Under the pieces are notes generated by a model. That model did no database searches. It had not been told where the DNA came from and saw only the letters and a list, made by a program, of their open reading frames with translations. Below, one piece after another: positions 2,299 through 36,083 of a stretch of 64,000 nt of DNA. A program made the position numbers and the translations under genes. The stretch spans positions 545,653-609,652 of the forward strand of contig JBGAVD010000002.1 in the NCBI GenBank assembly GCA_044228285.1, in the 5' to 3' direction. Numbering within the stretch: the stretch's first letter is position 1; each line of letters opens with the position of its first letter. The stretch comes from Chlorobiota bacterium (GTDB lineage: Bacteria; Bacteroidota; Ignavibacteria; Kapaibacteriales; NICIL-2).

Positions 2299-4410
2299 AT
2301 GCGTACACTCTATACTGTCGTCCTCTTTTTATTCCTTTGTTCATCCACCCTCCCTGCCCAATGGGTACGTGACATGAACAACTTCGAAGGTGGCATCATA
2401 GAGTGTTTGAGCTCAAGTGGTGATACAATAGTTGCAGGGACTCGAGGAGGTGGTGTGTATGTAAGCACAAACGGCGGACAGAACTGGGTGTCGAGAAGCG
2501 TTGGACTTGCTGTGCAAAACGTCATTAGTGTGTCCATTGGCGAGCAGGGCTTGTTTGCCTCTACCTACTATGACGGAGGCTTTTATCACTCTACAGACCT
2601 TGGTTTAACCTGGGAATCATGCTCTAATGGTATAGACGTTCAATGGTGGATATTTCAGATTGTACAGTGTAAAGGAAGATGCATTGCTGCCTCAGGGAAT
2701 GGATTGATTTGGATGTCTGAAGATGGCGGACAATCCTGGACGAAACGACTGTCGCTCGGTCAGGTAGTGGAATTCCGATCTGCAGCAATCCTCGATTCAA
2801 CAATCTATGTGGTTGTACCAAACTTTGGCTTGTACTCATCTGTAGATGCTGGATGGGACTGGAAGCTGCTTAGTAATGCCAGTGAAAGTGCTAAGAATGG
2901 TCGTGTTTGTGCCCTGTTTGGTAAGTCAATCTACATCGCGACGAATGCTGGGGAGCTGTTCTCAAGCTCCGACAATGGCAAGTCATGGACCCCTCGTTCA
3001 GATGCCTTTAGAGGTCAATCGGTGCTCTGTATGCACACTAGAGATACGATCTTATACCTCGGTACTCTGAATTCTGGGCTCTACGAATCTTCTGATTCTG
3101 GAATAACGTGGAAATCCTGCTCGGATGCACTCTCTACGACTGGCTTTCAGAGTATCACCTCAACACCGAAGAACATCATTGCGGGAGGTTTTAGTGGAAT
3201 CTCTCGCAGTGTAGTTGGTTCTGAGAAGTGGGCCGCATCCAATAAAGGTCTGATTCAGAACTTGGCGATGTGGGGCGCAGCCGCACAAGAAGACTACCTC
3301 TATGTTTGTTCCTCGGCTAACGGCGTGTTTCGTCGCACGAAAGGTGATAGTGTTTGGAATGCAATGAACTCGGGCATCTCGAATGTCGAAGCCTATGCCA
3401 TTGCCTGTGATTCGAACTACATCGCCGTAGGTACCGACAGTGGAGGCGTGTTCATTTCTACAAACCACGGAACTTCTTGGATTGATCGATCTCTAGGCCG
3501 CGAGAATGGTCTTATAGAAGCCGCAGGTGTGAAAGATTCTCTTATTATCATAGCACCAACACGCGGAGATGTTTTTGTGTGCTCTGGTATCAATGACACA
3601 TTGCGTAAAGTACCAGTGGGAGATGAGAGTCCATTCATCTATCACATCGCAACAGCTTCTGATCGAGCATATCTGGCTGCTGATAAGGCACTGTATGCTA
3701 TGGATTATGGAACTCAAGCAGTCACGGAGCTGAGCGGCGTTCTTAAACCAATCGAAGTATGTGTGTCTATCTCAGCATCCGATAAGCTTGTGTGCGCAGC
3801 AACGGCTATTGGTGTGTATGTTAGTTCCGACAATGGTGCACAGTGGGAGTACTTTGGCGTCACAGACGATCAGAATCAGATCACATGTGTTACGTGTTTG
3901 AATGAAACCATCCTTGTCGGTACAACGCAAGGAGACATCTTTGTGTCGACAGACAAAGGGTTGAACTGGACCAAAGAGGGAAGTCAGATATCAAGTCAGC
4001 CTGAGTTCCCAGCAACCTATAACGGCATAGCCGCAATCAGTGCTTTCGATGGTCAGCTCTTTGCTGTGAGTACGAGATCATCCGTCTTGCATCGTCCCTT
4101 GGACCAAATTGTTGATGTTGACGATTCCAAAGATGAGTTTGCTACCAATACAAAGTGTCTACTAAGCTGCTCACCAAATCCCTCATCTGACAAGTTGCAA
4201 TTGGCATATTCTCTTAGCAACTCCGAAGTGGTTAAACTTAAAGTTCACAGCATCCACGGTGAGCTAGTTGAACAAATTCTCCAAGAGCCTCAATCTTCAG
4301 GCTCGCACTTCGTGCTCGTCGATGTATCAAAACATCCGAGCGGAGTGTACCTTCTTACAATAGAGACCCCTACACGTCACGAGTCTCGCTGTGTCACTAT
4401 TTCTCGATAA
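2299..4410 (+). CDS. BNR/Asp-box repeat protein (Ycf48/sortilin-like) with T9SS C-terminal sorting domain
   Basis: Signal peptide MRTLYTVVLFLFLCSSTLPAQ. Nine S-x-D-x-G-x-T/S-W Asp-box motifs (STNGGQNW, STDLGLTW, SEDGGQSW, SVDAGWDW, SSDNGKSW, SSDSGITW, STNHGTSW, SSDNGAQW, STDKGLNW). The last ~85 aa resemble a type-A T9SS CTD. Confidence 0.8.
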   Translation: MRTLYTVVLFLFLCSSTLPAQWVRDMNNFEGGIIECLSSSGDTIVAGTRGGGVYVSTNGGQNWVSRSVGLAVQNVISVSIGEQGLFASTYYDGGFYHSTDLGLTWESCSNGIDVQWWIFQIVQCKGRCIAASGNGLIWMSEDGGQSWTKRLSLGQVVEFRSAAILDSTIYVVVPNFGLYSSVDAGWDWKLLSNASESAKNGRVCALFGKSIYIATNAGELFSSSDNGKSWTPRSDAFRGQSVLCMHTRDTILYLGTLNSGLYESSDSGITWKSCSDALSTTGFQSITSTPKNIIAGGFSGISRSVVGSEKWAASNKGLIQNLAMWGAAAQEDYLYVCSSANGVFRRTKGDSVWNAMNSGISNVEAYAIACDSNYIAVGTDSGGVFISTNHGTSWIDRSLGRENGLIEAAGVKDSLIIIAPTRGDVFVCSGINDTLRKVPVGDESPFIYHIATASDRAYLAADKALYAMDYGTQAVTELSGVLKPIEVCVSISASDKLVCAATAIGVYVSSDNGAQWEYFGVTDDQNQITCVTCLNETILVGTTQGDIFVSTDKGLNWTKEGSQISSQPEFPATYNGIAAISAFDGQLFAVSTRSSVLHRPLDQIVDVDDSKDEFATNTKCLLSCSPNPSSDKLQLAYSLSNSEVVKLKVHSIHGELVEQILQEPQSSGSHFVLVDVSKHPSGVYLLTIETPTRHESRCVTISR

Positions 4411-4687
4411 CGCTCTGATGCATCCCCTGATCTCAGGAGCGCAGAAAGCTGTTGTCAAGTACGATGTGCCTTAGAACAGCTAGTTGTGGTATCGACTATG
4501 GACACTTGAATCACTGTTGAAGTTCTGACAAAAGACCAATCAACGGCTTAACTGTAGAAGTAGGTTCGTGCCCACAAGCTATCTCTCGAATGACAGTGTG
4601 TAGAACCCAGGTCATGGGCTGTTTACCTGCCTCCAAGTTTCGTATCGAGTCGCTAAGAATTGAATCGAAGTATTGTTTGTCACATCG

Positions 4688-5356
4688 TTAGTTGTTAAGA
4701 ATAGCCTTTAGATACGAGCGATGCTGTTGTGCCATGTTGTAGACTTCAATGATATAGAAACCAGTGGTGTTGACATCTAGTGTCAAGCTCTGCACTGAGG
4801 TTTGGTATGTGGCGAGCACAGATCCATTGCTGCTTATCAAGCGAATGACTCTTTCGTCTGCCGTTGTCATGAGGAGCGTATTGCCTGCAAGAGCCAGACT
4901 GTTTGGGACTGATGCGTCTTCAGATTGTACGTCATTAGGCGCATCTTTCACCCACGTATAGAGTGTGTACACTTCTTTGCGCGCGAATGGACATTCATCT
5001 TTGACAAGACTGAAGCGTAGCGTGTCGGCAGAAATAGTGAATTCAAAAACACCGGTATCGGCATCACATTTAGCACCCTTGAGACCAAGAGTCCAGTAGA
5101 GATTGCCGTCTGTATGATAGATCGAGAAGGGGGCAAATGTTAGACCTTGGTTGGTGCTATACGAGATTGTGTCGCTCCCAAAGCTAAAGTACTTTTTGTC
5201 TATTCCAAAGGTATTGTCATATGCTATCCATCTGGTTCCAGACAGCGACTGTGCAGATGAAGTGACGATACTACAGCTGATAAGGCAGATGCAGAGTGCG
5301 AATAACTTGTTCAATGTGGTCTCCGAATGTAGGTGGTTATAAAAGGTGAATTTCAA
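4688..5356 (-). CDS. Small secreted protein with T9SS C-terminal sorting domain
   Basis: N-terminal hydrophobic signal LNKLFALCICLISCSIVTSSAQS. C-terminal ~70 aa are T9SS-CTD-like (...GFYIIEVYNMAQQHRSYLKAILNN). The TTG start abuts the stop of the upstream giant gene, suggesting translational coupling. Confidence 0.55.
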   Translation of the reverse strand: MKFTFYNHLHSETTLNKLFALCICLISCSIVTSSAQSLSGTRWIAYDNTFGIDKKYFSFGSDTISYSTNQGLTFAPFSIYHTDGNLYWTLGLKGAKCDADTGVFEFTISADTLRFSLVKDECPFARKEVYTLYTWVKDAPNDVQSEDASVPNSLALAGNTLLMTTADERVIRLISSNGSVLATYQTSVQSLTLDVNTTGFYIIEVYNMAQQHRSYLKAILNN

Positions 5357-8300
5357 TTAGGGTTGAATGATGCTCAAGTCTATGTTAACAGCCTGAGGGT
5401 TTACAGCAGACGCAGTTGCATTCACGAACTTGATCCGAACCGTATCAGTAGCTGATACTCGCACTGATGCGATACAAATGCCATCCTCCATATCCTCGCG
5501 AGGTGAAAGGTGTACTGTGCTTCCGACAACTGCGCCTGAAACTGTCAAATCTACATAAGCAGTTCCACCGCTTGCTGCGATTGTTGGACAATCGATGGTC
5601 TGATCCAGAAACTGCAACACTTGACGTCCCCAACTCATAGCACCCGACGTGCTGCTCGTTAACATTCTGTCTGAAGATGTTGGTGTGCTTGCAGGTAGCG
5701 AGAACTGAATATCGGTCGCGATACTATCTGGCGCTTTCAAGGAAACGTAATTCGTGCCATTCGGGAAGGCACCAGTTGTATTGTACTTTTCATAGAACCT
5801 CAAAGAACGAGGTGAGTTGTCGTTGGTTGTTAGCCACAAGTCTACATTATTAAACACTGCGGTTTGCGACTGGCTGATACTGATTGGTTTCACAGTAGAC
5901 GACGTGCTACCGTTAAATCCTATCGAGCCTGCGGCTGAGTTTTCAAGTGTCATGCGGGCTCCACCGAGAACGGTAGCATTATCAGCCGCTACAGAGTTTA
6001 GGTATCCGCCGACAACACAGGAATATGGGCCACTCGCAGTGTTGCTTTCGCCGCCGCAAACGACAGACGAGACACCCGAGGCCGTATCTTGTAAACCACC
6101 ACAGACAGTAGCCGAATATCCACTGGCAACATTCTGACGTCCACCGCCTAGCACACTGTAGCTGCCGCTTGCATTGTTCTGAGCACCCCCACCAACGCTT
6201 GAGTGGTTGCCATCGGAGCTGTTGTGCTCTCCACCTGTAACAACAGCGTAGTCGCCGCTCACAAGGTTTTGAGCACCGCCTGAAAGAACAGAATACAATC
6301 CACTGGCGACCTGCGAAGCAGAAGAACGAATCATCTGCCAATCAACAGCCATAGAGCCTCGTTTGTTTCCGCCGTCGATGGCGTTGTCTGGTACTTGAGC
6401 AAGTATTGCTCCGCTGCCGCTAGGGGACAGCGCAAGGTCAATGTCACCAGTCGTTGTAGGACGAAGTTGCACGACGTTCGTCGTGGCATTAGGAGCTGTG
6501 CTATGAAGACTTTCAGCTATGTGTTGCAAGCTGAATGTTGGTGTTGACCAATTCATCGCACCGCTTCCATTGGTTGTCAGTACTTGACCTGATGTACCAA
6601 CGGAGTCTGGAAGAGTGAAAACCAAATCAGCGGATAGGGAGTTGGGTGCTTTCAGTGCGACATAGTTTTTGCCATTAGGAAACGGACCAACATTCTCGTT
6701 TTGTTCATAGAAACGGAGTGTCCGAGTTTGACCATCATTGTTCGTCAACCAGAAGTCAACGTTGTTAAACACAGCAGTACGGGCTGTGGTAATGCTAATG
6801 GGTTTTGTGAGTGCATCATTGTCGCCATTAAATCCGATACTATGCATCGCAAGACTATCAAGCGTCAGATTGGAGCCACCTAAAACAGTAGACCACTCAG
6901 CAGCAGCGGAATTGTACGTTCCGCCGCACACCGTTGAGCCAGTAGAGAGGGCGAGATTGTGCGCACCACCCGCAATGACATTGTACGTGCCCATACTGGT
7001 ATTCGTGTCTCCACCACCGATTGTCGAAGCATACCCTTGAATCACATTCTGTATGCCTCCACCAATCGTTGAAGCTTTGCCCTCGATAAGGTTGTACGAG
7101 GCAATGTTGTTGTATAGGCCGCCACCGATAGTGGCACCGTCAGCACTCGAAAGAATGGAGTTAACAAAGCCACCGCCAACAGAAGAGTGTAGAGAGGCAG
7201 AGGTGTTAGCCCAGCCACCACTGATTGTAGCACTCTCGCCGCTAGCGACCTGAGAGGCAGAGGTTCTCCCACGTTGCAGATCCACAGCAAATGCACCGCG
7301 TTTGTTTCCACCGTTCGAGCTGTTGTCGGCACGTTGTGTACAAAGTGCTCCTGTTCCTTTCGGCGTTATTGCTATATCAATGTTTGTCTCTGTACCTGTA
7401 GCACTAATCTGATGGACTGGAATCGTCGTGTTTGGAGTACTCGTGTTTCTACTTTCTGAAAAGTATGATAGAGTATTGCTGTTCAAGCTGGTCCAACCGA
7501 GGTTGCCTGAACCATCAGTGCGTAGCACCTGGTTTGCAGTTCCATCGCTACTGGGTAGTGTCCAGACGAGGTCAGAGGGGATAACAGGTGGGGCTTTGAA
7601 GCCCACATAGTTGGCTCCATTTGGGAAGTTTCCTGTTGCGCTATCCTGCTCATAGAATCGAAGACTGCGGTTTAGACCATCATTGTTTGTGAGCCAAAAG
7701 TCTACATTGTTGAACACCGCTGTATGGTGAGAAGAAATTATCATCGACTTTGCGAGCTCGCCGGTACCATCGCCGTTGAAACCAAATGAGTGTTCAGCAG
7801 CAGAATCAAGTTCGAGATGGCCTCCACCTACAATCGTGGAATACATGCCTCTCACGCGGTTACCATTTCCTCCGCACACGGCTGAGAATTCTGCTGTTGC
7901 TGTGTTTAGCCGACCGCCACTCACTGTTGAAGCGAAGCCACTACTTACATTGTCGTAGCCGCCTCCAACAGTTGAGGCTTCATTGCTACTAATATTCTTA
8001 CCGCCACCAGAAACAGTAGAATTGTCTCCACTACTCTCATTCCAATAACCTCCACTCACTGTAGCGCCCAGTCCACTCGCTGTGTTACTCTGACCGCCGC
8101 TAATCGTTGATGAAAAACCACTTGATACCATTTCTGGGAACAATCTGTCCATTTGCCAATCAACAGCAAAACCTCCGCGCTTGTTTCCACCAGCATCTGT
8201 GTTGTCTGCCACTTGTGCGCATATCGCTCCGTCTTCTTTGGGTGTGAGCGCGAGATCTATTCGCGTCTCACTACCAACTGCCCGCAATTGATGCACAGGT

Positions 8301-11300
8301 ACTGCAGTGTTTGGTCCACTCGTATTTCTGCTCTCAGCCCAAAAGCTAAGACTACTACCACCTGCTACTTGCCATGAAACACTTGTTCCATTGGTCGTTA
8401 GTACTCGGCCTCCATTTCCACTTTGACTTGGAAGGAGATTACTAATAGCTCCATTTTGATTGGTTGCACCAGTTCCACCGCTTGAGATGCCGAGAGTTCC
8501 ACCGAGAGTAATCGTACCAGAGGAAGTTATCGGACCACCACTAGCTGTTAATCCAGTGTTTCCGCCTGATACGTTTACTGAGCTGACAGCACTTGAGCTG
8601 CTTACAGTGGTCCAGCCTAGATGTCCAGAACCATCTGTCTTTAGAACTTGATTTGCAGTACCATCACTGTTTGGAAGAGTCCATTCGACATCGTCGGTGA
8701 TGTTGTTCGGTGCTTTAAAGGCAACATAGTTTACATTGCCGTTTGGAAACAAGCCAGGTGAGTTGTATTTCTCATAAAAGCGAAGGGTTCGTGGGCTATT
8801 GTCATTGTTCGTCAGCCAGAAGTCGACATTATTCACAGCGAATGTTCGCGGAGTTGCGATAGAAAAGTCACATTGTTGCACTTGATGGCTACCATTATAG
8901 ACTACAGAATGATCAGCAGGGAATTGGATAATTGCGTTCGTTCCACCCAGAATGGTGGAGTTGCGAGAGAGAATTGAGTTTTGGAAACCACCAATAATGA
9001 CTGAATGCGATCCATAAATGGAATTTCCCGAACCTCCACTTACTACTGACATATCAGCATTTGGTCCTATAAAGTTGCTTGTTCCACCGCCAATCAAGCC
9101 TCCCAGACTTTCAACTCTATTCCCCGCTCCACCGCATATTGCAGAGTATTGGTTTAGAGCTTTGTTTCCAAAACCTCCGCAAACCGTTGAGAGGTCACCT
9201 CGCGCTGTATTTGAACGACCACCCAAAAGAGTAGAATAAATACCACTCGCAACCTCTGTAGGATCGTCACGCCAGCGTTGAAAATCCACTGCATACGACC
9301 CTCTCTTGTTTCCACCAACTTCAGTGTTGTCTGCGGTATGACTACTAAGGGCTCCATTACCCTTAGGTTTCAACACGAGGTCGATATTGGCAGCCGTTCC
9401 AAATGCCCGGAGGGCATGCGCAGGGACACTATCGTTTGGCGTTAGCGTGTCGCGTTTCTCCTCCAAGAATTGAAAACCGCTTGATCCAGGAATCCATGAA
9501 GTTCCATTCCACTTTATAACTTGACCAGCAGTCGCACCCATGCTGTGGATTTTGTCGGCCGTCACCGACGCTGCAGCTAGTTTAGATGAAGTGACAGCTG
9601 AATTCGCAATAGTCGGATTGGGATAGCTGCCATTGAGTTCACCACCTGCGGTGCCCGAAGGTGGGAGTGCAGAGGGGATGACTCCGGTGGCAAGTTTGGC
9701 ACTTGTAACTGACGCATCTTGAATGTTTAGTGTGCCGACAGCATTGTTGGCAAGTTTTGCGTTCGTGATGGTAGCCGTGCCAACCGTTGGATTAGGGTAG
9801 GTACCACTAAGGTCGCCACCAGCTGCACCGTTAGGCGGCAATGTGGTCGGTATTACACCTGTGGCAAGCTTAGCAATTGTTACAGACGCGTCTTGAATGT
9901 TTGTTGTACTCACTGCATTGCTTGCAAGTTTTGCGTTCGTAATTACCGCAGTGCCAACCGTTGGGTTAGGATAGGTACCACTTAGGTCTCCACCTGCTGC
10001 TCCGTTAGGTGGTAATGATGTAGGAATGATGCCACTCGCGAGTTTTGAACTCGTTACCGATGCGTCTTGAATATTCGCAGTGCCAATTGCGTTCGCGGCA
10101 ACTTTTGAGTTCGTGACAGCGTTGTTCGCCAAGAGAGGATTAGGATAGTTGCCACTTAAGTCGCCTCCAGCTGAGCCACTCGGTGGGAGAGAAGTTGGTA
10201 GAACACCAGAGGCAAGTTTCGCTGACGTGACAGAAGCATCCTGAAGATTACTTGTGCCAACGGCGTTCGTTGTCAGCTTTGCATTATTTACACTATTGTT
10301 AGCGACAATCGGATTCGGATAAGAGCCCGCAAGATCACCACCCGCCGCTCCGCTTGGGGGTAAGGTAGATGGAATCACACCAACAGCGAGCTTGGTAGCG
10401 TTTACAGATCCATTGGCTAGCTTCTGCGTGGTCACGCTTGAATCGACAATGTGAACGGTACCAACGGTGTTTGGAGCCAGCTTGCTGCTCGTGACACTTG
10501 CATTTGAAAGCGTTGGGTTTGGATAGCTGCCATTGAGATCGCCGCCTGCAGCGCCATTTGGCGGAAGTGCGTTTGGAAGAACGCCTGGTGCCAACTTCGC
10601 GAGTGTCACTGCTTCATCGGCGATCTTTCTTGTGCTAACACTGGCATCTTGCATGTTGTAGCTTGCCACTGCATTGATCGAGAGCTTCGCATTGCTTATG
10701 GCTTCATTTGCGATAGAAGGATTGGGATAGCTACCCACGAGATCACCGCCGGCACTACCAGCAGGAGGGAGTGAACTAGGTATCACTCCTGCAGCCAATT
10801 TTGAACTAGTAACCGATCCATCTTGGATGTTCGTGGTTTGTACTGCGTTCTGAGCAAGTTTCGAGTTCGTTACTGCACTCGCTGCAATCGTTGGATTTGG
10901 ATAGAGTCCACTCAAATCTCCTCCAGCTACTCCGCTCGGTGGTAACGTTGTTGGAAGAAGTCCAGGACTCAGTTTAGCGCTTGTAACGGCGGCATCTTGG
11001 ATGTTTGCCGTTCCGACCGCATTTGTAGCGAGTTTTGAGTTGGTAACAGCTGCAGCTGCTATACTGGGATTTGGATAGCTGCCGCTTAAATCTCCTGCTG
11101 CTGCACCATCAGGCGGAAGACGTGTGGGTAGCAGTCCAGGGGCAAGTTTCTCACGAGTGACTGAGCCGTCGGCAATCTTCCCACTGCTAACACTTGCATC
11201 TCTGAGATTAGTCGTCTCGACAGCGTTCTGCGATAGTGCGGTATTTGTAACTGATCCTGGTGCAAGGCTTGGATTTGGATACGAACCTGTCAAATGTCCA

Positions 11301-11815
11301 CCGGCTGACCCATTTGGTGGAAGGCTCGAAGGAATGACTCCGCTTGCTAGCTTTTCAGCGCTTATAGAATTGTCGGCGATGTTGATTGATTGAATTGCAT
11401 TAACCGCCACAGCGTTTGCAGAATCTGCAATACCAGCACGCTGTGAGTAGAGAGCGTAGGGCACAGCAGTCAATTGAGTCCGCGGCATCATTTCATCGTT
11501 GCTGGCTACTGAAACACCTAAAAAGTATGGACGGTTGAATGTGATGCTGTTTGGTATCGGAACCTGAGAACCTATGATGAGGCTAAAGATTCCTTTGATA
11601 ACGGAGGCGCGGTGCGCCTCCGTGTAGATAGGATCGGTAGAGCCCATAGTGGTGTATAAGCGCAGAGTAATGAGATACTCCCCATCTGGAAAGAGAGTAC
11701 CATCAGTTCTTACTAGCATTCCTTGATAGGAAATGTTACTCGGCACCTTCGCACTGAGTTGAATCGTGCTTGATAACAAGGCAATGAAAAGTACTATGCT
11801 GGAAGTCTTCAACAT
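5357..11815 (-). CDS. Giant (2152 aa) secreted repeat protein, adhesin or tail-fibre-like, with YadA-head/Hep_Hag-like 14-residue beta-roll repeats
   Basis: Signal peptide MLKTSSIVLFIALLSSTIQLSA. The N-domain starts ISYQGMLVRTDG...LRLYTT. It is followed by ten ~58-aa tandem repeats (KLAxGxxPxxLPPxGxAGGDLxGxYPNPxIAxxAVTNxKLAxNAVxTxNIQDAS). Then come four ~330-aa units, each ADNxxxGGNKRG + (ASGxYSxVxGGxxN)n + TAVFNNVDFWLTNNDxxxRxLRFYE...ANQVLxTDGSGxLGWT. No T9SS CTD at its own C-terminus. Confidence 0.85.
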   Translation of the reverse strand: MLKTSSIVLFIALLSSTIQLSAKVPSNISYQGMLVRTDGTLFPDGEYLITLRLYTTMGSTDPIYTEAHRASVIKGIFSLIIGSQVPIPNSITFNRPYFLGVSVASNDEMMPRTQLTAVPYALYSQRAGIADSANAVAVNAIQSINIADNSISAEKLASGVIPSSLPPNGSAGGHLTGSYPNPSLAPGSVTNTALSQNAVETTNLRDASVSSGKIADGSVTREKLAPGLLPTRLPPDGAAAGDLSGSYPNPSIAAAAVTNSKLATNAVGTANIQDAAVTSAKLSPGLLPTTLPPSGVAGGDLSGLYPNPTIAASAVTNSKLAQNAVQTTNIQDGSVTSSKLAAGVIPSSLPPAGSAGGDLVGSYPNPSIANEAISNAKLSINAVASYNMQDASVSTRKIADEAVTLAKLAPGVLPNALPPNGAAGGDLNGSYPNPTLSNASVTSSKLAPNTVGTVHIVDSSVTTQKLANGSVNATKLAVGVIPSTLPPSGAAGGDLAGSYPNPIVANNSVNNAKLTTNAVGTSNLQDASVTSAKLASGVLPTSLPPSGSAGGDLSGNYPNPLLANNAVTNSKVAANAIGTANIQDASVTSSKLASGIIPTSLPPNGAAGGDLSGTYPNPTVGTAVITNAKLASNAVSTTNIQDASVTIAKLATGVIPTTLPPNGAAGGDLSGTYPNPTVGTATITNAKLANNAVGTLNIQDASVTSAKLATGVIPSALPPSGTAGGELNGSYPNPTIANSAVTSSKLAAASVTADKIHSMGATAGQVIKWNGTSWIPGSSGFQFLEEKRDTLTPNDSVPAHALRAFGTAANIDLVLKPKGNGALSSHTADNTEVGGNKRGSYAVDFQRWRDDPTEVASGIYSTLLGGRSNTARGDLSTVCGGFGNKALNQYSAICGGAGNRVESLGGLIGGGTSNFIGPNADMSVVSGGSGNSIYGSHSVIIGGFQNSILSRNSTILGGTNAIIQFPADHSVVYNGSHQVQQCDFSIATPRTFAVNNVDFWLTNNDNSPRTLRFYEKYNSPGLFPNGNVNYVAFKAPNNITDDVEWTLPNSDGTANQVLKTDGSGHLGWTTVSSSSAVSSVNVSGGNTGLTASGGPITSSGTITLGGTLGISSGGTGATNQNGAISNLLPSQSGNGGRVLTTNGTSVSWQVAGGSSLSFWAESRNTSGPNTAVPVHQLRAVGSETRIDLALTPKEDGAICAQVADNTDAGGNKRGGFAVDWQMDRLFPEMVSSGFSSTISGGQSNTASGLGATVSGGYWNESSGDNSTVSGGGKNISSNEASTVGGGYDNVSSGFASTVSGGRLNTATAEFSAVCGGNGNRVRGMYSTIVGGGHLELDSAAEHSFGFNGDGTGELAKSMIISSHHTAVFNNVDFWLTNNDGLNRSLRFYEQDSATGNFPNGANYVGFKAPPVIPSDLVWTLPSSDGTANQVLRTDGSGNLGWTSLNSNTLSYFSESRNTSTPNTTIPVHQISATGTETNIDIAITPKGTGALCTQRADNSSNGGNKRGAFAVDLQRGRTSASQVASGESATISGGWANTSASLHSSVGGGFVNSILSSADGATIGGGLYNNIASYNLIEGKASTIGGGIQNVIQGYASTIGGGDTNTSMGTYNVIAGGAHNLALSTGSTVCGGTYNSAAAEWSTVLGGSNLTLDSLAMHSIGFNGDNDALTKPISITTARTAVFNNVDFWLTNNDGQTRTLRFYEQNENVGPFPNGKNYVALKAPNSLSADLVFTLPDSVGTSGQVLTTNGSGAMNWSTPTFSLQHIAESLHSTAPNATTNVVQLRPTTTGDIDLALSPSGSGAILAQVPDNAIDGGNKRGSMAVDWQMIRSSASQVASGLYSVLSGGAQNLVSGDYAVVTGGEHNSSDGNHSSVGGGAQNNASGSYSVLGGGRQNVASGYSATVCGGLQDTASGVSSVVCGGESNTASGPYSCVVGGYLNSVAADNATVLGGARMTLENSAAGSIGFNGSTSSTVKPISISQSQTAVFNNVDLWLTTNDNSPRSLRFYEKYNTTGAFPNGTNYVSLKAPDSIATDIQFSLPASTPTSSDRMLTSSTSGAMSWGRQVLQFLDQTIDCPTIAASGGTAYVDLTVSGAVVGSTVHLSPREDMEDGICIASVRVSATDTVRIKFVNATASAVNPQAVNIDLSIIQP
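5620..9580 (-). repeat. Coding repeat: four diverged ~1-kb (≈330-aa) units inside the giant gene
   Basis: Four blocks each contain GGNKRG, Gly/Ser-rich 14-residue repeats and the near-invariant AVFNNVDFWLTNND...LRFYE...FPNG.NYV..KAP motif. Boundaries are approximate. Confidence 0.65.
9600..11440 (-). repeat. Coding tandem repeat: ~10 copies of a ~174-nt (58-aa) unit inside the giant gene
   Basis: Ten successive G[STLN]YPNP motifs at ~58-aa spacing in the translation. Boundaries are approximate. Confidence 0.7.
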
Positions 11816-11849: not shown

Positions 11850-12419
11850 TTACGCTAGTGTTAGTGCCAGTTTTTTGTGAACGATGATAGCAAGGCTGTT
11901 ACTCTCAGCACCATCTTGGTAGTGCAGCAAGTAGATGCCATCGGGTATGCCTAGTTTTCGTATATCAATGGCTACTGTTTCAACCCATGGGCCGCTATAC
12001 ACCTCAGCGACGTGCTCACCCAAGAGAGTATGAAGCTGCAAACTCACCGTGTTGATGCTAGGCTTGTCTATGTGTATGGTTGCTTCAGAAAGGACAGGGT
12101 GAGGGCTTACACGTATGCTGGACCGTGTCGTGTCAGTGAAAAACGAGTTAGACGTAGAAACCCAGAAGCCTTGTTGTATGTGCGCCTTTGGATGTTCCAC
12201 AAGACCTACAATGGACTGTCCGACTGTGCCATAGCAGACGGTAGTCTTGTTTATGCTGGCCGAGCTTCCCGCGGACACGACCGCTTTCGTCAAGCTTTGC
12301 GAAAGCAGAGTGCTCGAATTGAAACTCGTGAGCAATCCAAAGAAGACGCAAGACGAGGAAATCCAACTTGCTCGTCCAAGAGTGTACATGCTGCCAGGGA
12401 AGAAGTCTTTAGCGTTCAT
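11850..12419 (-). CDS. Small secreted protein with T9SS C-terminal sorting domain
   Basis: The ORF is open to 12530, but the likely start is an internal ATG at 12419 or 12389, followed by signal peptide MYTLGRASWISSSCVFFGLLTSF. The C-terminus (...GIYLLHYQDGAESNSLAIIVHKK) is T9SS-CTD-like. Confidence 0.5.
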   Translation of the reverse strand: MNAKDFFPGSMYTLGRASWISSSCVFFGLLTSFNSSTLLSQSLTKAVVSAGSSASINKTTVCYGTVGQSIVGLVEHPKAHIQQGFWVSTSNSFFTDTTRSSIRVSPHPVLSEATIHIDKPSINTVSLQLHTLLGEHVAEVYSGPWVETVAIDIRKLGIPDGIYLLHYQDGAESNSLAIIVHKKLALTLA

Positions 12420-12739
12420 GCAGAATGCGTTTATATTGTGTAACAATCGAAATAGCGCAACCCTCTGCCGATTCACCTTCAGCAAAGTAGATCCAGGCAA
12501 CATCCTGATCTGGTTCGGGATAGTCTTCAATCAGAAGCAACTGTCGAAGTCTCGAGAACCATATTTGGAAAGTTGTTAGATACTCTGCTCGATCATCCAT
12601 AGTTGAGGTGTAGAAGTTGACAGTGGAAAATTAGCCGTCGAAGAGTCTGAGAATCGAGCAACAATGTCCTTCATTCTTAAATCTCTGAGTCGCATATATT
12701 GCGCTAAGTGCCATTCATTACATTGTATTAGAGCAGAGC

Positions 12740-14356
12740 ATGACTCCTTCACAAGATCTCCATCAATTGATTCACTCTCTCTCGAGTTCGGAGAAGCGGT
12801 ATGTAAAGCTATTTGTGGCAGGAACGAGTGGTGGAAGCGAGACTATCGCTCTGCGTGTCATAGATGCAATTGCAAAACAAGAAGTGTACAACGAAACGGC
12901 ACTTCTTCGGAAGTTTTCCAAGGAAAAGTTCGCTTCAAACTTTGCCGTCTATAAAAAGCATATCCTCTCTGTTATTCTGCGTGCTGCTGCCACATACCGC
13001 GATAACATCGATCAAAAAGAGTCACTCCGATTGCGGCTGCGAGAGATACTCTTTCTCTATGAGAAAAGTCTCTACAAACTGTGTCATAAGTTGAACCAGA
13101 AACTACAGGCTGATGCTGAATCATCAGAATGCTATACGCTGTTGATTGAAAGCCTTGATGTCGAGCGAAGACTCTTGACCTGCTCAGAGGCGAATGAGTT
13201 GTTTCCTGAACAGCATCATATTCTCATTCGGGAGCTTGAAGAGCGTATGACAACCGTTGTTGAACAATTGAATCGTGTCAATATGATGCAGATGGCATAT
13301 GAGCGGTTGCTTTTTGCAGTAAAGAACCCTGGTGTCGAGTTTCAGTCCATAGCTGGTATGAAAACCTGGGCAGAGACTGTCCTAAAACCGTCCTTGTTCT
13401 TCTCCAATCAAGAGTACACGTCCTTCTCGGAGCAACGACTGTTCCACGTAGTGCGAGCCTACTATCACTCTGCCTTTTGCGTGAACTCAACAAGTGATCC
13501 AGATCAACAACGTAACGAGTTCGTGCACTCAATCACGCATGTTCGCGCTCTCGTTGACTTGTATGGAAGAAACAATAATCGCAGTGTGTTTGTTGGCGAG
13601 TACTTTGAAGATGCGAGAATGATATCCGCTGTGCTAAGCCAGACTTTCCTTCATCATGATGCGCTTCAATTCATACAGGACTGGCGAAGCCAGGCCATGA
13701 ACATGAAAAGCTTTATCAGCAAGAACTGGGATGTGATTATTCTGAACACCTTCGTGCGTGAAGGGTACATTCTCATAGAACTCTTCGATGACAAACTCTC
13801 GATTGACTATCTAGAGAGAGTACGTACAATAATCGATGACAATTCGTCTGACCAAGCACATGAACTGATTCGATCCATAGAGTATGTATGCGCCTGGCTC
13901 CTCTATTCTCTCGGTCGTTATGACGAGTGCATTGGTGTGTGTGCGCGAATCCTGAATTCAACAACACTTGAGCTCCTACATGAGAATGTGCGGATCATTC
14001 AGCTTGCTGCTTTCTTTGAGAAGAAAGAGTATGAGATACTCAATTCAATAGCTCGTTCTTCGCTGCGACAAGTTCAACAGAACAAAGCTCTGCACGGCTA
14101 CAAGTCTTTTCTGCACTGCATGATTGGAATCTCATCTGCTGGATCGCAGAAGCAGATAGATAAGTGCATACGCACTTTTCAGAAGAAGGTGATCGAGTTC
14201 AACCAGAAAGAGTATGGTAGTGATTTCTCGGACTATCTGGAGACTGGTATCGAATTCCCGATCGTTTGGGCGGGAGCCCAGTTAGCCCGTAGACGCTACT
14301 CAGAAGAGCATCGGGAACGAATGTCTTTGCTTAAGAAAGCTCTACAAGTGGACTAA
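12740..14356 (+). CDS. Hypothetical cytoplasmic alpha-helical protein (538 aa)
   Basis: ATG start. Long uninterrupted ORF with no signal peptide or TM segment, helical/TPR-like composition and no recognisable catalytic motif. Flanked by long non-coding DNA. Confidence 0.55.
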   Translation: MTPSQDLHQLIHSLSSSEKRYVKLFVAGTSGGSETIALRVIDAIAKQEVYNETALLRKFSKEKFASNFAVYKKHILSVILRAAATYRDNIDQKESLRLRLREILFLYEKSLYKLCHKLNQKLQADAESSECYTLLIESLDVERRLLTCSEANELFPEQHHILIRELEERMTTVVEQLNRVNMMQMAYERLLFAVKNPGVEFQSIAGMKTWAETVLKPSLFFSNQEYTSFSEQRLFHVVRAYYHSAFCVNSTSDPDQQRNEFVHSITHVRALVDLYGRNNNRSVFVGEYFEDARMISAVLSQTFLHHDALQFIQDWRSQAMNMKSFISKNWDVIILNTFVREGYILIELFDDKLSIDYLERVRTIIDDNSSDQAHELIRSIEYVCAWLLYSLGRYDECIGVCARILNSTTLELLHENVRIIQLAAFFEKKEYEILNSIARSSLRQVQQNKALHGYKSFLHCMIGISSAGSQKQIDKCIRTFQKKVIEFNQKEYGSDFSDYLETGIEFPIVWAGAQLARRRYSEEHRERMSLLKKALQVD

Positions 14357-15552
14357 GTGCTTGCTTCTATCAAACTCCAGACATTGCGAGTGCCTCACTG
14401 AACTTCGAGATAGTACGAGTTATACGATGATTCTGTCGCTGTCTTAGTGTGGTGAATAAGCGAGAGTGGAGTAGTGTTTGAGATACACGAGTTAGGCCCA
14501 ACTTGATAGACACTGTCGCTCTGTTAACCCTCATCAGGAGCTCGAAACCGTTTAGCTCTGGCAGAATGTCAGCCTCAACCTTTTCAATGCTACACTCCAA
14601 CTCACCTTGGTTTGATCTACTAACATGCTGCCCAGCTACGTGAGCTCACGGATTACGCTCGGGCACTTAGCACACGATCTCCACGGTCACTATTGGACGG
14701 GACTAGGACTGAGTGATGACGAACGCAACAATCCAGTGAGTAGTCATATGGCTACCCGCATCGACACTGTGCAGCGTCCACACGACGTGTCACAATCGCA
14801 GGACAGACAATAGTAGAGTTCCGCGCAGATCGGGGACAACAGTCGTGATTGCAGACAGTACGATTCGTCAACATGGGGTAGAAACTCACACTATTGACAC
14901 AAGACATTTTACTTCTGACTATTAATACAAAAAAATACTATTAAACATCTTGGCAGCATGAATGCGAAAACATGTGCTCTGTGTCGACAGATAATTGTAA
15001 GTTGTTGCAGTTACAACTGCAATGTGGACATTGTACAGAGTACGGTTGGACTTTTGATGGGAATGCAAACGTCTTTCCTCGATGACTGAGAAGTGAGATT
15101 CGTGATTCGGTCAGTCGGAGCATGGGTGAGTTGTTGAATTGTTGTGCTGTTGTTTCGGTTGAACATACAGTAGAGCTTTTGAGTTGACATGTTTATGCAA
15201 CCAAGCCTAATAATCAACGCTCTGGAGAAACACCTGTGAATTGTAAGATGCCTGTAGTTACAGGCTGTTTAGTCTTCATTATAGAGATTCAATAATATTG
15301 ATTGAACGTTATAGGCGGCATTGAAATTGAGCGCCGCTTTTTGTTTGGGAGACTATTGTTAACAGAGGTTGGTTTGAAAAAGCGCACAACGTCCATACAA
15401 CCTGGACGAAGACGAGCCGTGCGTTGAGTCCACAAAGAATACGAGAAGACACTTTCGATTTCTTGGAAGACGCAGTTTTACAACGCGGACATTGTGCATA
15501 CCGTTTGATTTTTAAGCTCTGTTGAGGGCTTTACTCGAGGATACGCAAAACG

Positions 15553-15587
15553 TTAACCTTAACCTTAACCTTAACCTTAACCTTAAC
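15553..15587. repeat. Hexanucleotide microsatellite (TTAACC)5 plus TTAAC
   Basis: Perfect tandem copies read directly from the sequence, ~95 bp upstream of the ATG at 15681. Confidence 0.95.
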
Positions 15588-15664
15588 GCAAGCCTTTTAC
15601 TGAGTGTCATTTTTGCTTGTGACACTCTATCCAGCATCAACCGAGCAATGCATTGATTCATTAG

Positions 15665-15674
15665 TTTTTTTTTT
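15665..15674. repeat. Homopolymeric T10 tract immediately upstream of the start codon at 15681
   Basis: gtttttttttta read directly, 6 bp before the ATG. Confidence 0.9.
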
Positions 15675-15680
15675 ACCATT

Positions 15681-16178
15681 ATGGAGAATAGTATGAGTAC
15701 GTTCAGGACTACAGTAGTCGTATTGGCACTACTAGTAAATGTAGGCAGCATGTTTGCACAATCAAACCCGGCTCCAAACAAGCAGTTCGGCATTGGAGTT
15801 GGAACAAGAGGTGCAGAGTTTGTGTACGCTTTTAGTCCTTCCATTCAGTTTGGCAGCTACGTCGGTCTACGACTCGGCGATGGCGAGACCATGGTAAGCT
15901 TTACTCCAAATCTGCGCATTCTGTTTGAAGGAAATGTCAACATGTTCCTCCAACCAGGCTTGAGCTTTTCGTCGACAAGCATGACAAGAAATGGCATTAC
16001 ACAATCTAGCTCGTCAACATCGGTTCTATTAGATGGTGGGCTAGTGTATTACATCCGACCTTCTTTGGGCTTGATTGGATCGATTAAGGTTGTCGATTTA
16101 GGACTAGGACAAGATGGCGTAGCAAAGTTTGGTTTGTTTGGCGGTGACATCGGAATTGAGTGGTTCTTCGCTCCTTAG
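15681..16178 (+). CDS. Small secreted or outer-membrane protein (hypothetical)
   Basis: ATG start. Signal peptide TVVVLALLVNVGSMFAQ. Gly/Ser-rich with alternating hydrophobic beta-strand pattern. C-terminus ...IEWFFAP. Confidence 0.5.
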   Translation: MENSMSTFRTTVVVLALLVNVGSMFAQSNPAPNKQFGIGVGTRGAEFVYAFSPSIQFGSYVGLRLGDGETMVSFTPNLRILFEGNVNMFLQPGLSFSSTSMTRNGITQSSSSTSVLLDGGLVYYIRPSLGLIGSIKVVDLGLGQDGVAKFGLFGGDIGIEWFFAP

Positions 16179-23625: not shown

Positions 23626-25248
23626 CTACTCGATGAAAAAAGTGTTGAGAATTCCTTTACCTTTTAGCTCGATAGGACCGCGTGCCACTACCCGGAACGA
23701 TGCGTCCGATTTTGCTAACTCTTGTACAAACTCTTCAGAACAGTGAATCTTTCCTGCAATACCGTGGCTCTCTAATCGCGAGGCAAGGTTGACAGCATCT
23801 GAGTACATATCGTATACGAATCGTTCGCGCCCCACAACACCGGCAACCACCGCTCCGCAATGAAGACCAATACGAACTCCGAAATCTGAGTGATCAGGAA
23901 GATATGACTTTGCTTCCTCCGGGAGCTTGAGGGTTCGCAACATCTCTTGTGCAGCTTTGGCTAAGCGCTCTGCATGATCATCACATGGCGTTGGCGCACC
24001 GGCAACCGCCATATATCCGTCACCTATCGTCTTGATTTTCTCACAGCCATGTTCTTTCACGATTCGATCGAACACTGAAAAAATACTATCTAGTACACGA
24101 ACGATGAGCTGCGCAGGCATCGTCGCACTCATGGGTGTGAATCCCTTTATATCTGCAAAGAGGATAGAGACGCAAGGAAGATAATCGGCAATTTCGGCCG
24201 AATCTTCCATCATCCGATCAGCAATGACTGCAGGGAGAAGGCGATGAAGTAGCTCCCTCGTAGTTGAGCTTTGAGCTCGTTGAATTTCGAGTTCTTTCTC
24301 GCGTAAAGCTACTCTCCGTTCATATCCATGTTTCTGTGCCATCTGTTGAACCTCAACAGAGTTAGTCTGTTGGGTGAGCTCGTGGTATCGTTCAAAATAC
24401 TCGAGTGCAAGTTTCCATTGCTCCTGCTGTCGATGGAGCAGACTTAGTGACTGTGTGATATAGGTTTGGCTACTAAGAGATTGCATCTCAACACTTAACT
24501 CAAGCGCTTGTTCAAAATAGTGTTGTGCCGTCTGGGTGTTGTAGAGACGAAATGTATCAATCTGATAAACTTGACCTAGACTATGCAGAGCCATGATCAT
24601 GTTCCCCTTGTCGCCAATCTCCTCTGAAATCTGCAGTGCTTCCTCATACAGTCCAACACACTCTTCAAAACAGTCGCGAGAAGCCCAGACTGACGCAATG
24701 TTGGTCAGCACCAGCACTTCGCCATGCCGATCAGCAAGTTTGCGGTATTGATTCAATGATGAATCTAGATACTGAAGTGCAGCATCGTAGTCTTGTATAT
24801 GCACCCTGGAAGAAGCAAGATTGCAGAGGATGTTTGCTCTATATAACTCTAAGTTATGCTCAGTTGCTAAACCAAGAGCTTGATGTAAGTATTCATCTGC
24901 ACGGTTATAGTCGAGTATTTGGGTGTAAACATTGCCGAGGTTACATAAACAGGCAACTTGCAGGTCGGGCTGATGAAGAGTCTCTGCGCAATGCAATACC
25001 TGAGTATAAAGTGCAATTGCGTCTTTGTTTAGTCCACGAATTGCAGCAACATTAGCTTGCTGGTTCAGCACTCGAGCTTGAAGTACTAGGTATTCATCTT
25101 GTACTTTCGACTCATTGCTGGGCATAGCTATCTCGATTTCGTTCAGCGCTCGAGAACACAAGTCCATGGAATCATCGAGTTCTCCCCGTTGTTGTGCGCT
25201 TCGCGCTTCGCTGATCAACAGCTCTATTTTGTTTTTGACATCCATCAT
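23626..25248 (-). CDS. TPR-repeat protein fused to a class III adenylate cyclase catalytic domain
   Basis: N-terminal TPR-like helical repeats. C-terminal cyclase motifs FADIKGFT, KTIGDGYMAV, RIGLHCGAVVAG(VVG). The Lys in KTIGD suggests ATP specificity. Confidence 0.85.
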   Translation of the reverse strand: MMDVKNKIELLISEARSAQQRGELDDSMDLCSRALNEIEIAMPSNESKVQDEYLVLQARVLNQQANVAAIRGLNKDAIALYTQVLHCAETLHQPDLQVACLCNLGNVYTQILDYNRADEYLHQALGLATEHNLELYRANILCNLASSRVHIQDYDAALQYLDSSLNQYRKLADRHGEVLVLTNIASVWASRDCFEECVGLYEEALQISEEIGDKGNMIMALHSLGQVYQIDTFRLYNTQTAQHYFEQALELSVEMQSLSSQTYITQSLSLLHRQQEQWKLALEYFERYHELTQQTNSVEVQQMAQKHGYERRVALREKELEIQRAQSSTTRELLHRLLPAVIADRMMEDSAEIADYLPCVSILFADIKGFTPMSATMPAQLIVRVLDSIFSVFDRIVKEHGCEKIKTIGDGYMAVAGAPTPCDDHAERLAKAAQEMLRTLKLPEEAKSYLPDHSDFGVRIGLHCGAVVAGVVGRERFVYDMYSDAVNLASRLESHGIAGKIHCSEEFVQELAKSDASFRVVARGPIELKGKGILNTFFIE

Positions 25249-27523: not shown

Positions 27524-29404
27524 TTAGAATATCGTATATAGTATCAATAGTGCGAGAACTGTTCCCACAACGACGGCAGCAAAGCCGAAGAGGCGCAAGC
27601 CAATTTCTACTGGCAGTGGAGTAGGTTTGGTGACCACGTAGTCCTTTGTGTTGCCGGTTTCATTGTAGCGTTTCCATTGGTCCATTCGTTCATGTCGCAT
27701 TTCCTCCTCACTGATTTGACCATTGAAGATGACGAAATCCATAGGGAATTTCTCTACTCGTAGGTGCGTGTTAAAGAAGTGAATCGTAAAGATGAATCCT
27801 ACAGCGAGGAGTGCTTCGTCGGAGTGGATGATGGTTGCTACATTAAACACCCAACCAGGTAAAAAACCTCCAAAGAACTCAGGCATCCATAGTATGAGAC
27901 CACTTGAGCCGATAACGCCGACGCCCCAGAATACAGCCAGAAAGTCAAACTTCTCCCAATATGTCCAACGATCAAACGTTGGCTTTGGCCCTTTGAAAAA
28001 GAACCACTTAAACATTGCGATCATGTCGCGAAGATCGCGACGGTTTGGAAACAGGCTATCAGGTCCAAACAAACGCTGCAACATGGTCTCTTTCGGCGCA
28101 CGCTTCGTGATGAGGAAGCGTATACTCATGCCGAGTGTGACAAAGAAGTATCCGAAGGTGACAACGGCTGCCAGACGGTGGATGAGACCAGCCGAGGCAA
28201 CACCGCCGAGAAGGTCCATGAGTGCATGTCCCCATTGGGTCTCGTTGAACTTCAAGGGTAGACCAGTTATAGCAAGGGTTAAGAAACTTGTGATGACAAA
28301 AATGTGGAGGATGATGTGTATTGGACGGAAACGACGATACACTTTCTGCGCTGCATGCTGTTTTGTTACTTCGGTGGCTGCGCCACCGAAGAGGGCTGCA
28401 TTGGCAAGATGCTTCTTCTCAACAAAGCCTCGATACATCCATAGTAATGAGTGCAACCAGAAGAATAGAAACGTACCAGCCAGTAATCCATTCATGCTAA
28501 TGGTCACCCAAAAGAGCAGAGGATTGGCTTGTCGGTTCCCAGGTTCAGCATGCGGAAGGTATTTGGCAAAGCCGTTACCTGCATCCTTATGACACTGCCG
28601 ACAGGTCGTTGTGAGGTTGTTAGGATGTATCGATGAATGAGGATCATCCTTTGGGAGAATCTTGTGCGACTCATGGCAATCACTACAACCAGCAACTTGT
28701 TCAGGATGACCTAGGCGAACGTTCTTGCCGTGGTAGCTTTCGAAATACGAAATTGGTGCGATTGTGGTGACTTTGTTACGCGCCATTTTATCGGCATCAG
28801 CATGACACTTTAAACACGCTTGAGTATGAAACATGCGGCCTTGCTGGACGTTGTCTATGCGATCGATGGCGTGCAAACCATGGCAATCCACACAGCCCGG
28901 AGCATCCTTACTGCCTTCTTTTATAGCTTTGAAGTGACTCGATTCGAAGAAGGACGATTGCTTGTCATGACATTGAGTGCAGAGTTGGGCAGTGGCAATT
29001 TTGTCGTTCTTGATGGAGCGTAAGCCGTGTATCTCCGAGTGACACTTAGCGCAGGTAATTGGCAGACGTTTTGAGTTGTGTACGCTTTTCTCGTGATCGT
29101 TGACCACAGAAGAGTGGCAGCTCACACACTGTGTTGGCTTGAATGAAGCAACGCACTTCTTGTCTGTACCCTCCGCTGCAAATGGAGCCTTAGTGTGATC
29201 TTCGATATGGCATGCTGCGCATTGCAGTGACTTGTGTACTGAGCTGTTATATAAAGCAGAGTACTTATGATCACCATGGCATTTCTGACAATCTGAGTTT
29301 GACTGCGTATGTGTTTGAGTGTTCTGCGCACGCGTATTGGTACCGCTCATTACAAGTATCACCAGGCAGGCGGCTAGTTTCGAGAGTTTGGATAGTACTG
29401 ACAT
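27524..29404 (-). CDS. Nine-heme c-type cytochrome fused to a membrane dihaem cytochrome b (FdnI/HydC-like) domain. CbcL-like quinol oxidoreductase.
   Basis: Signal peptide MSVLSKLSKLAACLVILVMSG (internal ATG at 29404; the ORF is open to 29491). Nine CxxCH motifs (CQKCH, CAACH, CVSCH, CAKCH, CTQCH, CVDCH, CLKCH, CSDCH, CRQCH). The C-terminal ~330 aa have at least four hydrophobic helices with conserved His, resembling the b-type cytochrome of formate dehydrogenase or hydrogenase. Confidence 0.8.
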   Translation of the reverse strand: MSVLSKLSKLAACLVILVMSGTNTRAQNTQTHTQSNSDCQKCHGDHKYSALYNSSVHKSLQCAACHIEDHTKAPFAAEGTDKKCVASFKPTQCVSCHSSVVNDHEKSVHNSKRLPITCAKCHSEIHGLRSIKNDKIATAQLCTQCHDKQSSFFESSHFKAIKEGSKDAPGCVDCHGLHAIDRIDNVQQGRMFHTQACLKCHADADKMARNKVTTIAPISYFESYHGKNVRLGHPEQVAGCSDCHESHKILPKDDPHSSIHPNNLTTTCRQCHKDAGNGFAKYLPHAEPGNRQANPLLFWVTISMNGLLAGTFLFFWLHSLLWMYRGFVEKKHLANAALFGGAATEVTKQHAAQKVYRRFRPIHIILHIFVITSFLTLAITGLPLKFNETQWGHALMDLLGGVASAGLIHRLAAVVTFGYFFVTLGMSIRFLITKRAPKETMLQRLFGPDSLFPNRRDLRDMIAMFKWFFFKGPKPTFDRWTYWEKFDFLAVFWGVGVIGSSGLILWMPEFFGGFLPGWVFNVATIIHSDEALLAVGFIFTIHFFNTHLRVEKFPMDFVIFNGQISEEEMRHERMDQWKRYNETGNTKDYVVTKPTPLPVEIGLRLFGFAAVVVGTVLALLILYTIF

Positions 29405-29429
29405 TGTGCAAATCCAGAATGAATAATGT

Positions 29430-35820: not shown

Positions 35821-36083
35821 GGATTAAATGAGACTGAATGGGCAAGACAAGTGCTCCAATCTAGCGCACACGATTTGTCTGCACAAGGAACACTTCAGCT
35901 TCGATACTGTTGCGCAATAGTGTTATTGATCCTCTTGTACAATGTAGCACAGTAGGCCGTGATCTTTGTGCGCATGGATCAGCTTGCGCTCTTTGTCGAA
36001 GCTCTCGCGGTATTGCAGTTGTATCTCTTCGTGTGTAAACCCGAAGAGTGCATATTTGCAGAGAACTCTCAAAGGGAATTACT

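Follow-up and report, generated by a model that had tools for sequence, protein, structure and literature searches.

A 64,000-nucleotide window on contig JBGAVD010000002.1 of the Chlorobiota bacterium assembly GCA_044228285.1, a metagenome-assembled genome (MAG) of an Ignavibacteria/Kapaibacteria-like lineage, contains a single intact open reading frame (ORF) at window positions 5357-11815 on the reverse strand. It starts with ATG, and its product of 2152 amino acids (aa) has throughout the composition of a beta-type repeat protein rich in Ser, Gly, Ala, Thr and Asn. The protein is probably a chromosomally encoded, Sec-exported, trimeric surface adhesin resembling the MAT fibres of Bdellovibrio, built from phage tail-fibre modules and carrying four UspA1-like heads in series. 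The combination of a signal peptide, a conserved N-terminal domain, a fibre of phage type, an exchangeable tip and a mosaic, multi-copy family leads to this MAT-like reading. The initial annotation, which was made from the sequence alone, had proposed a trimeric fibre adhesin or a surface protein derived from a phage tail fibre. A surface fibre adhesin of tail-fibre origin is still the best reading, and the matches of the N-terminal domain sharpen it to the MAT type. From the N-terminus to the C-terminus, the protein is composed as follows (window positions, all on the reverse strand).

11750..11815 (-), aa 1-22: putative signal peptide, MLKTSSIVLFIALLSSTIQLSA followed by KVP after the predicted cut, without a lipobox cysteine; judged by inspection.
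11360..11749 (-), aa 23-152: N-terminal beta-sandwich domain, MAT_N-like, a putative cell-proximal anchor; NF053851 match and AlphaFold2 (AF2) model.
9530..11359 (-), aa 153-762: ten DUF5907 repeats of 58 or 68 aa, a putative slender trimeric shaft; Pfam and PHROG matches.
9491..9529 (-), aa 763-775: connector hairpin AGQVIKWNGTSWIPG before unit 1; its QVL..G..W motif is also found ahead of the head module of the Cy-LDV1 tail fibre and of some IMG/VR proteins.
8609..9490 (-), aa 776-1069: super-repeat unit 1, with the beta-roll at aa 860-965 (nucleotides 8921-9238); E=2e-26 against Cy-LDV1 g10.
8366..8608 (-), aa 1070-1150: Gly/Ser/Thr-rich linker of 81 aa with SGGNTGLTASGGPITSSGTITLGGTLGISSGGTGAT and a second QVL-type hairpin; similar to Cy-LDV1 g10.
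7490..8365 (-), aa 1151-1442: super-repeat unit 2, with the beta-roll at aa 1235-1338 (nucleotides 7802-8113).
6545..7480 (-), aa 1446-1757: super-repeat unit 3, with the beta-roll at aa 1528-1654 (nucleotides 6854-7234); E=3e-29 against Cy-LDV1 g10.
5630..6532 (-), aa 1762-2062: super-repeat unit 4, with the beta-roll at aa 1841-1959 (nucleotides 5939-6295); E=9e-30 against Cy-LDV1 g10.
5360..5629 (-), aa 2063-2152: C-terminal beta-rich domain of 90 aa, a putative distal tip; homologous to the C-termini of relatives.

The first 22 residues look like a Sec signal peptide, as the initial annotation had suggested. On inspection, a positively charged n-region is followed by a hydrophobic core and by an LSA end with K as the next residue, and no 11-mer elsewhere in the protein is as hydrophobic as the one within aa 4-18. 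In the homologues, the conserved domain begins directly after the equivalent hydrophobic segment. A promoter and terminator scan gave results at chance level.

The domain that follows the signal peptide is the probable link of the protein to the MAT fibres. NF053851 (Bdello_MAT_N) is the sole NCBIfam match of the whole protein (E=1.3e-4, profile positions 5-149 of 162), and the match improves to E=2.7e-6 when the N-terminal domain is scanned alone. Scanned singly, 37 of the 39 non-redundant N-terminal domains of the family match the same model, with a best E of 1.3e-11. Most of the longer relatives (above about 1,400 aa) retain the domain at E=1e-14 to 1e-26 despite their differing bodies, and some of the shorter ones match it more weakly. 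A profile search with it retrieved 713 proteins at E<=1e-5, and those with a name are mostly from Bacteroidota; in these matches the region behind it consists of collagen repeats, DUF5907 or another body. The AF2 model of the domain, computed with the family alignment, is a six-stranded beta-sandwich with a predicted local distance difference test (pLDDT) score above 90 over the first ~90 residues. Foldseek comparison of this model with the PDB gave generic beta-sandwiches only and no significant match (best E=0.03), comparison with the BFVD viral models gave only weak generic matches (best E=7.7e-4, template modelling score 0.3), and a profile search of PDB sequences returned nothing significant. 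Judged from these profile matches, the domain is likely to be a distant homologue of the Bdellovibrio MAT N-terminal domain.

All 21 MATs of Bdellovibrio bacteriovorus carry a beta-rich domain, conserved and ~130 aa in length, straight after the signal peptide (Caulton et al. 2024, PMC10769870). This domain has no homologue in the PDB and is presumed to lie adjacent to the cell surface, and the C-terminal tips vary and fall into S74 and non-S74 classes (PMC10769870). The present protein shares with MATs such as Bd2133, Bd2439 and Bd3182 the signal peptide followed by a probably homologous N-terminal domain (by profile match), the long phage-like fibre, the S74 and non-S74 tips that are interchangeable across the family, and the occurrence of several paralogues per genome. 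On the other hand, it is about twice as long as a typical MAT, its host is not a known predator, and its DUF5907 repeats and four serial UspA1-like heads are not described in PMC10769870. The words 'YadA', 'head' and 'autotransporter' each occur zero times in the main text of that paper, and Bacteroidota, Ignavibacteria and DUF5907 are unmentioned in the text of its supplement.

The body of the protein begins with the repeats of the putative shaft. YPNP occurs ten times at aa 179-731 and LPP ten times at aa 165-717, each with a spacing of 58 or 68 aa. The repeats match Pfam PF19264 (DUF5907) in nine stretches with E=3.9e-28 and 97.9 bits against a gathering cut-off of 27, and they also match the PHROG tail-fibre families phrog_892 (4.7e-38) and phrog_28766 (7.8e-35). 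Their alignment has a mean column identity of 74%. A sub-repeat of ~10 aa (xVTxxKLAxx) is nested inside the 58-aa repeat, and one extra copy of it gives the 68-aa variants. The count of ten repeats given in the initial annotation was right, with the length now 58 or 68 aa instead of ~58. The motif order was not, since LPP comes first and YPNP last, and the GGDL between them is not invariant, with AAGDL, GGHL and GGEL also occurring. A profile search of the PDB with the repeat matched no solved structure, and DUF5907 is not mentioned in the literature that was searched. The ten YPNP repeats are members of a family that makes up most of many relatives of 1200-1400 aa in Chitinophagaceae and other Bacteroidota, whereas here they form only the proximal third of the fibre. 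The function of the family is unassigned.

The shaft is followed by four super-repeat units. GGNKRG recurs at aa 834, 1209, 1502 and 1815, and RFYE at aa 1012, 1386, 1701 and 2006, with spacings of 293-375 aa. The units measure 292-312 aa, and the extra linker of 81 aa, which has no Pfam match, is present only between units 1 and 2. As a control of periodicity, the protein was shuffled 2000 times, and the mean counts were 0.016 for YPNP, 0.41 for LPP, 0 for GGNKRG and 0.0005 for RFYE, so the repeat periodicity is not due to chance. Four super-repeats had been described before, and this number stands, while the length of ~330 aa assigned to them was too great. The block described as strictly conserved at their ends is so in part: LRFYE is identical in all four units, but NNVDFWLTNND becomes NNVDLWLTTND in unit 4, and the QVL..G..W motif has diverged in units 3 and 4. 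Similarly, the GG repeat of the beta-roll was recognized correctly, but its period is not fixed at 14 residues; it ranges from 14 to 16, with 15 the commonest, and gives 7-8 turns per unit.

The GG repeats are homologous to the head of the Moraxella catarrhalis adhesin UspA1. A single sequence matches the UspA1 head structure (PDB 3pr7) with E=5e-19, and a profile of 30 units matches it with E=1.7e-32. The best match is that of unit 2, in which aa 1235-1335 align with residues 14-114 of 3pr7, and the consensus xSTVxGGxxNxAxGx is common to the units and the UspA1 head. The resemblance to the heads of trimeric autotransporter adhesins that the initial annotation had pointed out is thus borne out at the sequence and profile level. 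Of the Pfam models it had proposed as a check, neither YadA_head (Hep_Hag, PF05658) nor Peptidase_S74 matches the protein at E<=1. The sole Pfam match of the beta-roll is to LbR_Ice_bind, a grass antifreeze model, at a sub-threshold 21.8 bits against a cut-off of 30, and no Pfam model covers the flanks of the beta-roll within the units.

An AF2 monomer model of unit 4 with the tip shows a regular strand pair about every 15 residues along the beta-roll (pLDDT 70-87) and no helix of four or more residues, and its overall pLDDT is 66. A Foldseek search of the PDB with this weak model gave no match at E<0.3, which is uninformative either way. Within the monomer, the model confidence is low for the invariant GGNKRG..AVD.Q..R segment, as would be expected if it were packed at a trimer interface. 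Compared with UspA1/YadA-type adhesins (PDB 3pr7, 3ntn), the 14-16-residue GG repeat is shared, and a trimeric left-handed parallel beta-roll is to be expected by homology. In contrast, the protein lacks a C-terminal beta-barrel anchor and a coiled-coil stalk, it carries four heads in series, each bracketed by connectors of phage type, and its conserved attachment end is N-terminal.

The connectors and the beta-roll also have relatives in phages, and the likeness to tail fibres that had been noted earlier holds for PHROG families, for a named phage protein and for viral metagenome sequences. In a tblastn search, unit 2 is 41% identical to g10 of Cyanophage Cy-LDV1, a 'putative tail fiber protein' (BK059895.1, DAZ90884.1), with E=4e-22. 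Together with the QVL..G..W hairpin in front of it, each of the four units can be aligned with the one module that Cy-LDV1 g10 contains (E=2e-19 to 9e-30), and the 81-aa linker is 71% identical to the same protein over 41 aa (E=5e-11). Among IMG/VR sequences, at least 568 viral stretches encode the super-repeat module. The viral architecture was drawn from 80 fetched loci with 84 proteins. The hairpin, the GGNKRG..AVD connector and the beta-roll are shared at 36-41% identity, but the viral proteins of ~350-950 aa have one copy of the module compared with the four present here, and none of the 80 loci joins it with the MAT_N-like domain, DUF5907 or the 90-aa tip. The NNVDFWL/LRFYE connector after the beta-roll is missing in 73 of the 84 proteins. 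Since the viral proteins have a single copy, serial multiplication of the module seems to characterize the cellular proteins. No signal peptide was seen in Cy-LDV1 g10, the only viral protein inspected for one. The g10 gene (2603-5014) is flanked by a head-tail joining gene and a tail terminator gene. Tail-fibre genes are not usually located there, and the g10 product might be a neck or head fibre.

The 90-aa domain at the C-terminus recurs at the C-termini of relatives P0006, P0008, P0019, P0037 and P0042 with E of about 1e-33, and more distantly in ~17 others. It has no Pfam model and no PDB sequence match. In a profile search covering 1.84 billion representatives, it turned up in 8,888 clusters (50% identity) at E<=1e-3, of which 1,061 are at <=1e-10, and its end lies no more than 3 aa from the C-terminus in 105 of the 143 top matches. 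The sampled proteins that bear it are 150-3400 aa long, many have an N-terminus resembling a signal peptide, and three pass the Pfam threshold for YadA_head. The domain is also present as 3-4 tandem copies in proteins of ~300 aa that lack signal peptides, and in a GH28-like beta-helix protein of Armatimonadota.

Relatives of the protein occur in Candidatus Kapaibacterium, Ignavibacteria, Chitinophagaceae and other Bacteroidota MAGs, and they shuffle these modules. Behind the same N-terminal domain, the tip may be Peptidase_S74 (P0054), C1q/BclA_C (P0038), the phage depolymerase C-terminal domain Phage_depo_C (P0072), or the 90-aa domain. P0002, P0003, P0017 and P0011, which are among the closest fibre relatives, have the same N-terminal domain and end in a segment like the S74 intramolecular chaperone, then a coiled coil, then a tail of the type IX secretion system (T9SS); the Por_Secre_tail (PF18962) matches of P0011 and P0002 score 25.6 and 22.9 bits, under the cut-off of 27. 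P0011 is a second fibre, a paralogue, on the same contig as the window. The combination is unusual, because self-cleavage at an S74 site in these four proteins would release the fibre from the secretion tail of the same chain. The number of complete units is four here, 2-5 in several relatives, and ~9 in an Ignavibacteria protein without DUF5907. Tandem paralogues are frequent in the related genomes, and no neighbouring gene is conserved around the homologous loci.

On this basis, a working model of the fibre can be proposed. The signal peptide would carry each chain over the inner membrane, and three chains would then assemble into one fibre. S74 chaperones, C1q-like tips and the UspA1 head all form trimers, and a trimeric state is suggested because these modules belong to the protein or its relatives. 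The N-terminal beta-sandwich of ~130 aa would stay by the cell surface as the conserved attachment end, and the ten DUF5907 repeats may form a thin shaft. The four phage-type head modules would make thicker nodules with repeated binding surfaces, each consisting in order of the QVL..W hairpin, the GGNKRG..AVD.Q..R connector, a UspA1-like left-handed beta-roll of 7-8 turns, and the NNVDFWL/LRFYE connector. The 90-aa beta-rich domain would cap the distal end, and the complete fibre may attach multivalently to other cells, to glycans on surfaces or to particles. We infer both the orientation of the fibre on the cell and its export across the outer membrane.

Among other explanations, the protein could be a non-canonical T9SS cargo, in which the 90-aa domain serves as a sorting or anchoring signal and the C-terminus is the cell-attached end. 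The surroundings are T9SS-rich, as the initial annotation had stated, and Por_Secre_tail proteins neighbour the fibre gene. The paralogue and three relatives end in a recognizable T9SS tail, the 90-aa domain lies mostly at the extreme C-terminus of proteins that often begin like secreted ones, and the one named tip bearer with a signal peptide is from a member of Bacteroidota (Runella). However, neither Por_Secre_tail nor any NCBIfam T9SS C-terminal-domain model matches the protein, even at permissive thresholds. Moreover, some proteins without signal peptides carry the domain in tandem, with part of the copies internal, and it is also found in the GH28-like protein of Armatimonadota, a phylum that to our knowledge lacks a T9SS, and relatives fill the same position with C1q, S74 and depolymerase domains, which are fibre tips. 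Because of this spread across C-terminal, tandem and non-T9SS contexts, a general fibre-capping module fits the domain better than a T9SS-specific sorting signal, and the cargo reading is unlikely. A non-adhesive role, as a sheath or S-layer-like structural fibre of the matrix or as an ice-binding beta-roll, also has a low probability. The sub-threshold LbR_Ice_bind match and a match to PDB 3ult speak for it, but the profile E for 3ult is 6.4e-7, far weaker than that for UspA1, and an ice-binding protein was dismissed on account of this weak and sub-threshold match. The swapping of tips among relatives is a signature of receptor-binding fibres, which argues against a matrix scaffold.

Every body module has relatives in phage tail fibres, and the gene could accordingly encode a structural fibre of a phage-derived particle such as a prophage, a tailocin or a contractile injection system. 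This is quite improbable, because a signal peptide is present that a virion fibre would not require, and because none of the larger ORFs of the window was recognized as a phage or tail gene in a Pfam scan. The gene content of the window is that of an ordinary chromosome, with T9SS-tail proteins, an OmpA-like barrel, multihaem cytochromes, a TonB receptor, a histidine kinase and GcvP, and the viral loci combine a single module with none of the terminal domains or the shaft repeats. A prophage fibre was rejected on the genomic context together with the signal peptide. The homology of the beta-roll to the UspA1 head would likewise suit a classical trimeric autotransporter adhesin exported by type Vc secretion, which is the least probable of the explanations and is highly improbable. 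No YadA_anchor beta-barrel was detected by Pfam at E<=1 over the whole protein or at E<=10 in the C-terminus, where a soluble-looking beta domain is present instead, and no YadA_head, stalk or anchor model of Pfam matches at E<=1. In the part modelled by AF2, unit 4 with the tip, neither helices nor a coiled-coil stalk are present, and it is the N-terminal end that is conserved in the family. The trimeric autotransporter was ruled out by the lack of the membrane anchor that defines it.

Several points weigh against the MAT-like adhesin as well. Every NF053851 match scores under the curated cut-off of 60 bits, so that strict membership of the Bdellovibrio family is unproven, and no Bdellovibrio protein is named among the best 120 matches of the N-terminal profile search; on both counts the link to MATs rests on one profile model. 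Pfam and NCBIfam scans found no recognized signal for export across, or anchoring in, the outer membrane, and the surface location is putative. No conserved neighbour gene points to a partner. The weak monomer model and the Foldseek result leave the beta-roll and the trimer without structural confirmation. Since the host lineage is not a known predator, the function of the Bdellovibrio fibres is not transferable to it.

The repeat DNA had also been regarded as a substrate for recombinational length variation, and this view is not supported. At the DNA level the ten 58-aa repeats are 48-77% identical, with the best pair reported by Tandem Repeats Finder at 82%, and the longest exact direct repeat within the gene is 17 bp. 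Recombination of the RecA type requires a minimal length of homology, and repeats diverged to this degree with exact matches of at most 17 bp are thus a poor substrate. For the same reason of DNA divergence, the repeats would not be collapsed or expanded by an assembler, and an assembly artefact was excluded. Scans of genome and metagenome contigs with the whole protein found only relatives of at most 42% identity.

Some further genes of the window deserve mention. The TTG start of a 222-aa ORF (4688-5356, reverse strand) abuts the stop codon of the fibre gene, and the two may be co-transcribed. Its product has an N-terminus like a signal peptide and a C-terminal stretch resembling a T9SS sorting tail; it has no Pfam match and no homologue beside related fibre genes. 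Immediately upstream of the fibre gene, a small ORF (11850-12530, reverse strand) has a weak Por_Secre_tail match (E=0.009, 16.7 bits); its listed TTG start is probably too far upstream, and an internal ATG precedes a hydrophobic segment. Two large multihaem cytochrome genes lie at 27524-29491 and 31194-32675, both on the reverse strand; an MtrC/MtrF-like domain is encoded by one of them, and the pair suggests a cluster for extracellular electron transfer. Signalling proteins with tetratricopeptide repeats are encoded at 23626-25248 (reverse strand) and 41839-43848 (forward strand), of which one is fused to an adenylate/guanylate cyclase domain and the other to a histidine kinase. The ORFs of 538 aa and 625 aa at 12740-14356 and 36048-37925, both on the forward strand, have no Pfam match. 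The translation of an ORF at 15512-15844 (reverse strand) contains the run LRLRLRLRLRL, which is indicative of a short simple-sequence DNA repeat near 15.5-15.6 kb.

For the family as a whole, it is put forward as a tentative possibility that MAT-type fibres are not peculiar to Bdellovibrio but are a widespread surface system of Bacteroidota and Ignavibacteriota sharing one N-terminal attachment domain. The present lineage would then have turned a single-copy phage receptor-binding head into a serial, beads-on-a-string array with four heads in the present protein and up to ~9 in relatives, bearing a very common tip and exported without the T9SS tail of the paralogue, and the N-terminal domain would mark an unrecognized route of display at the outer membrane. 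The practical weight of the finding is moderate, as it concerns one hypothetical adhesin in a metagenome-derived genome. If the MAT-like reading of the present protein is right, the recently described MAT architecture would reach beyond a predatory deltaproteobacterium into Bacteroidota and uncultured lineages of Ignavibacteria/Kapaibacteria-like type, and a phage receptor-binding module that is homologous to the heads of pathogen adhesins would have been multiplied serially on a cellular fibre. The MAT_N-like domain and the 90-aa tip would then be targets for annotation and structural work.

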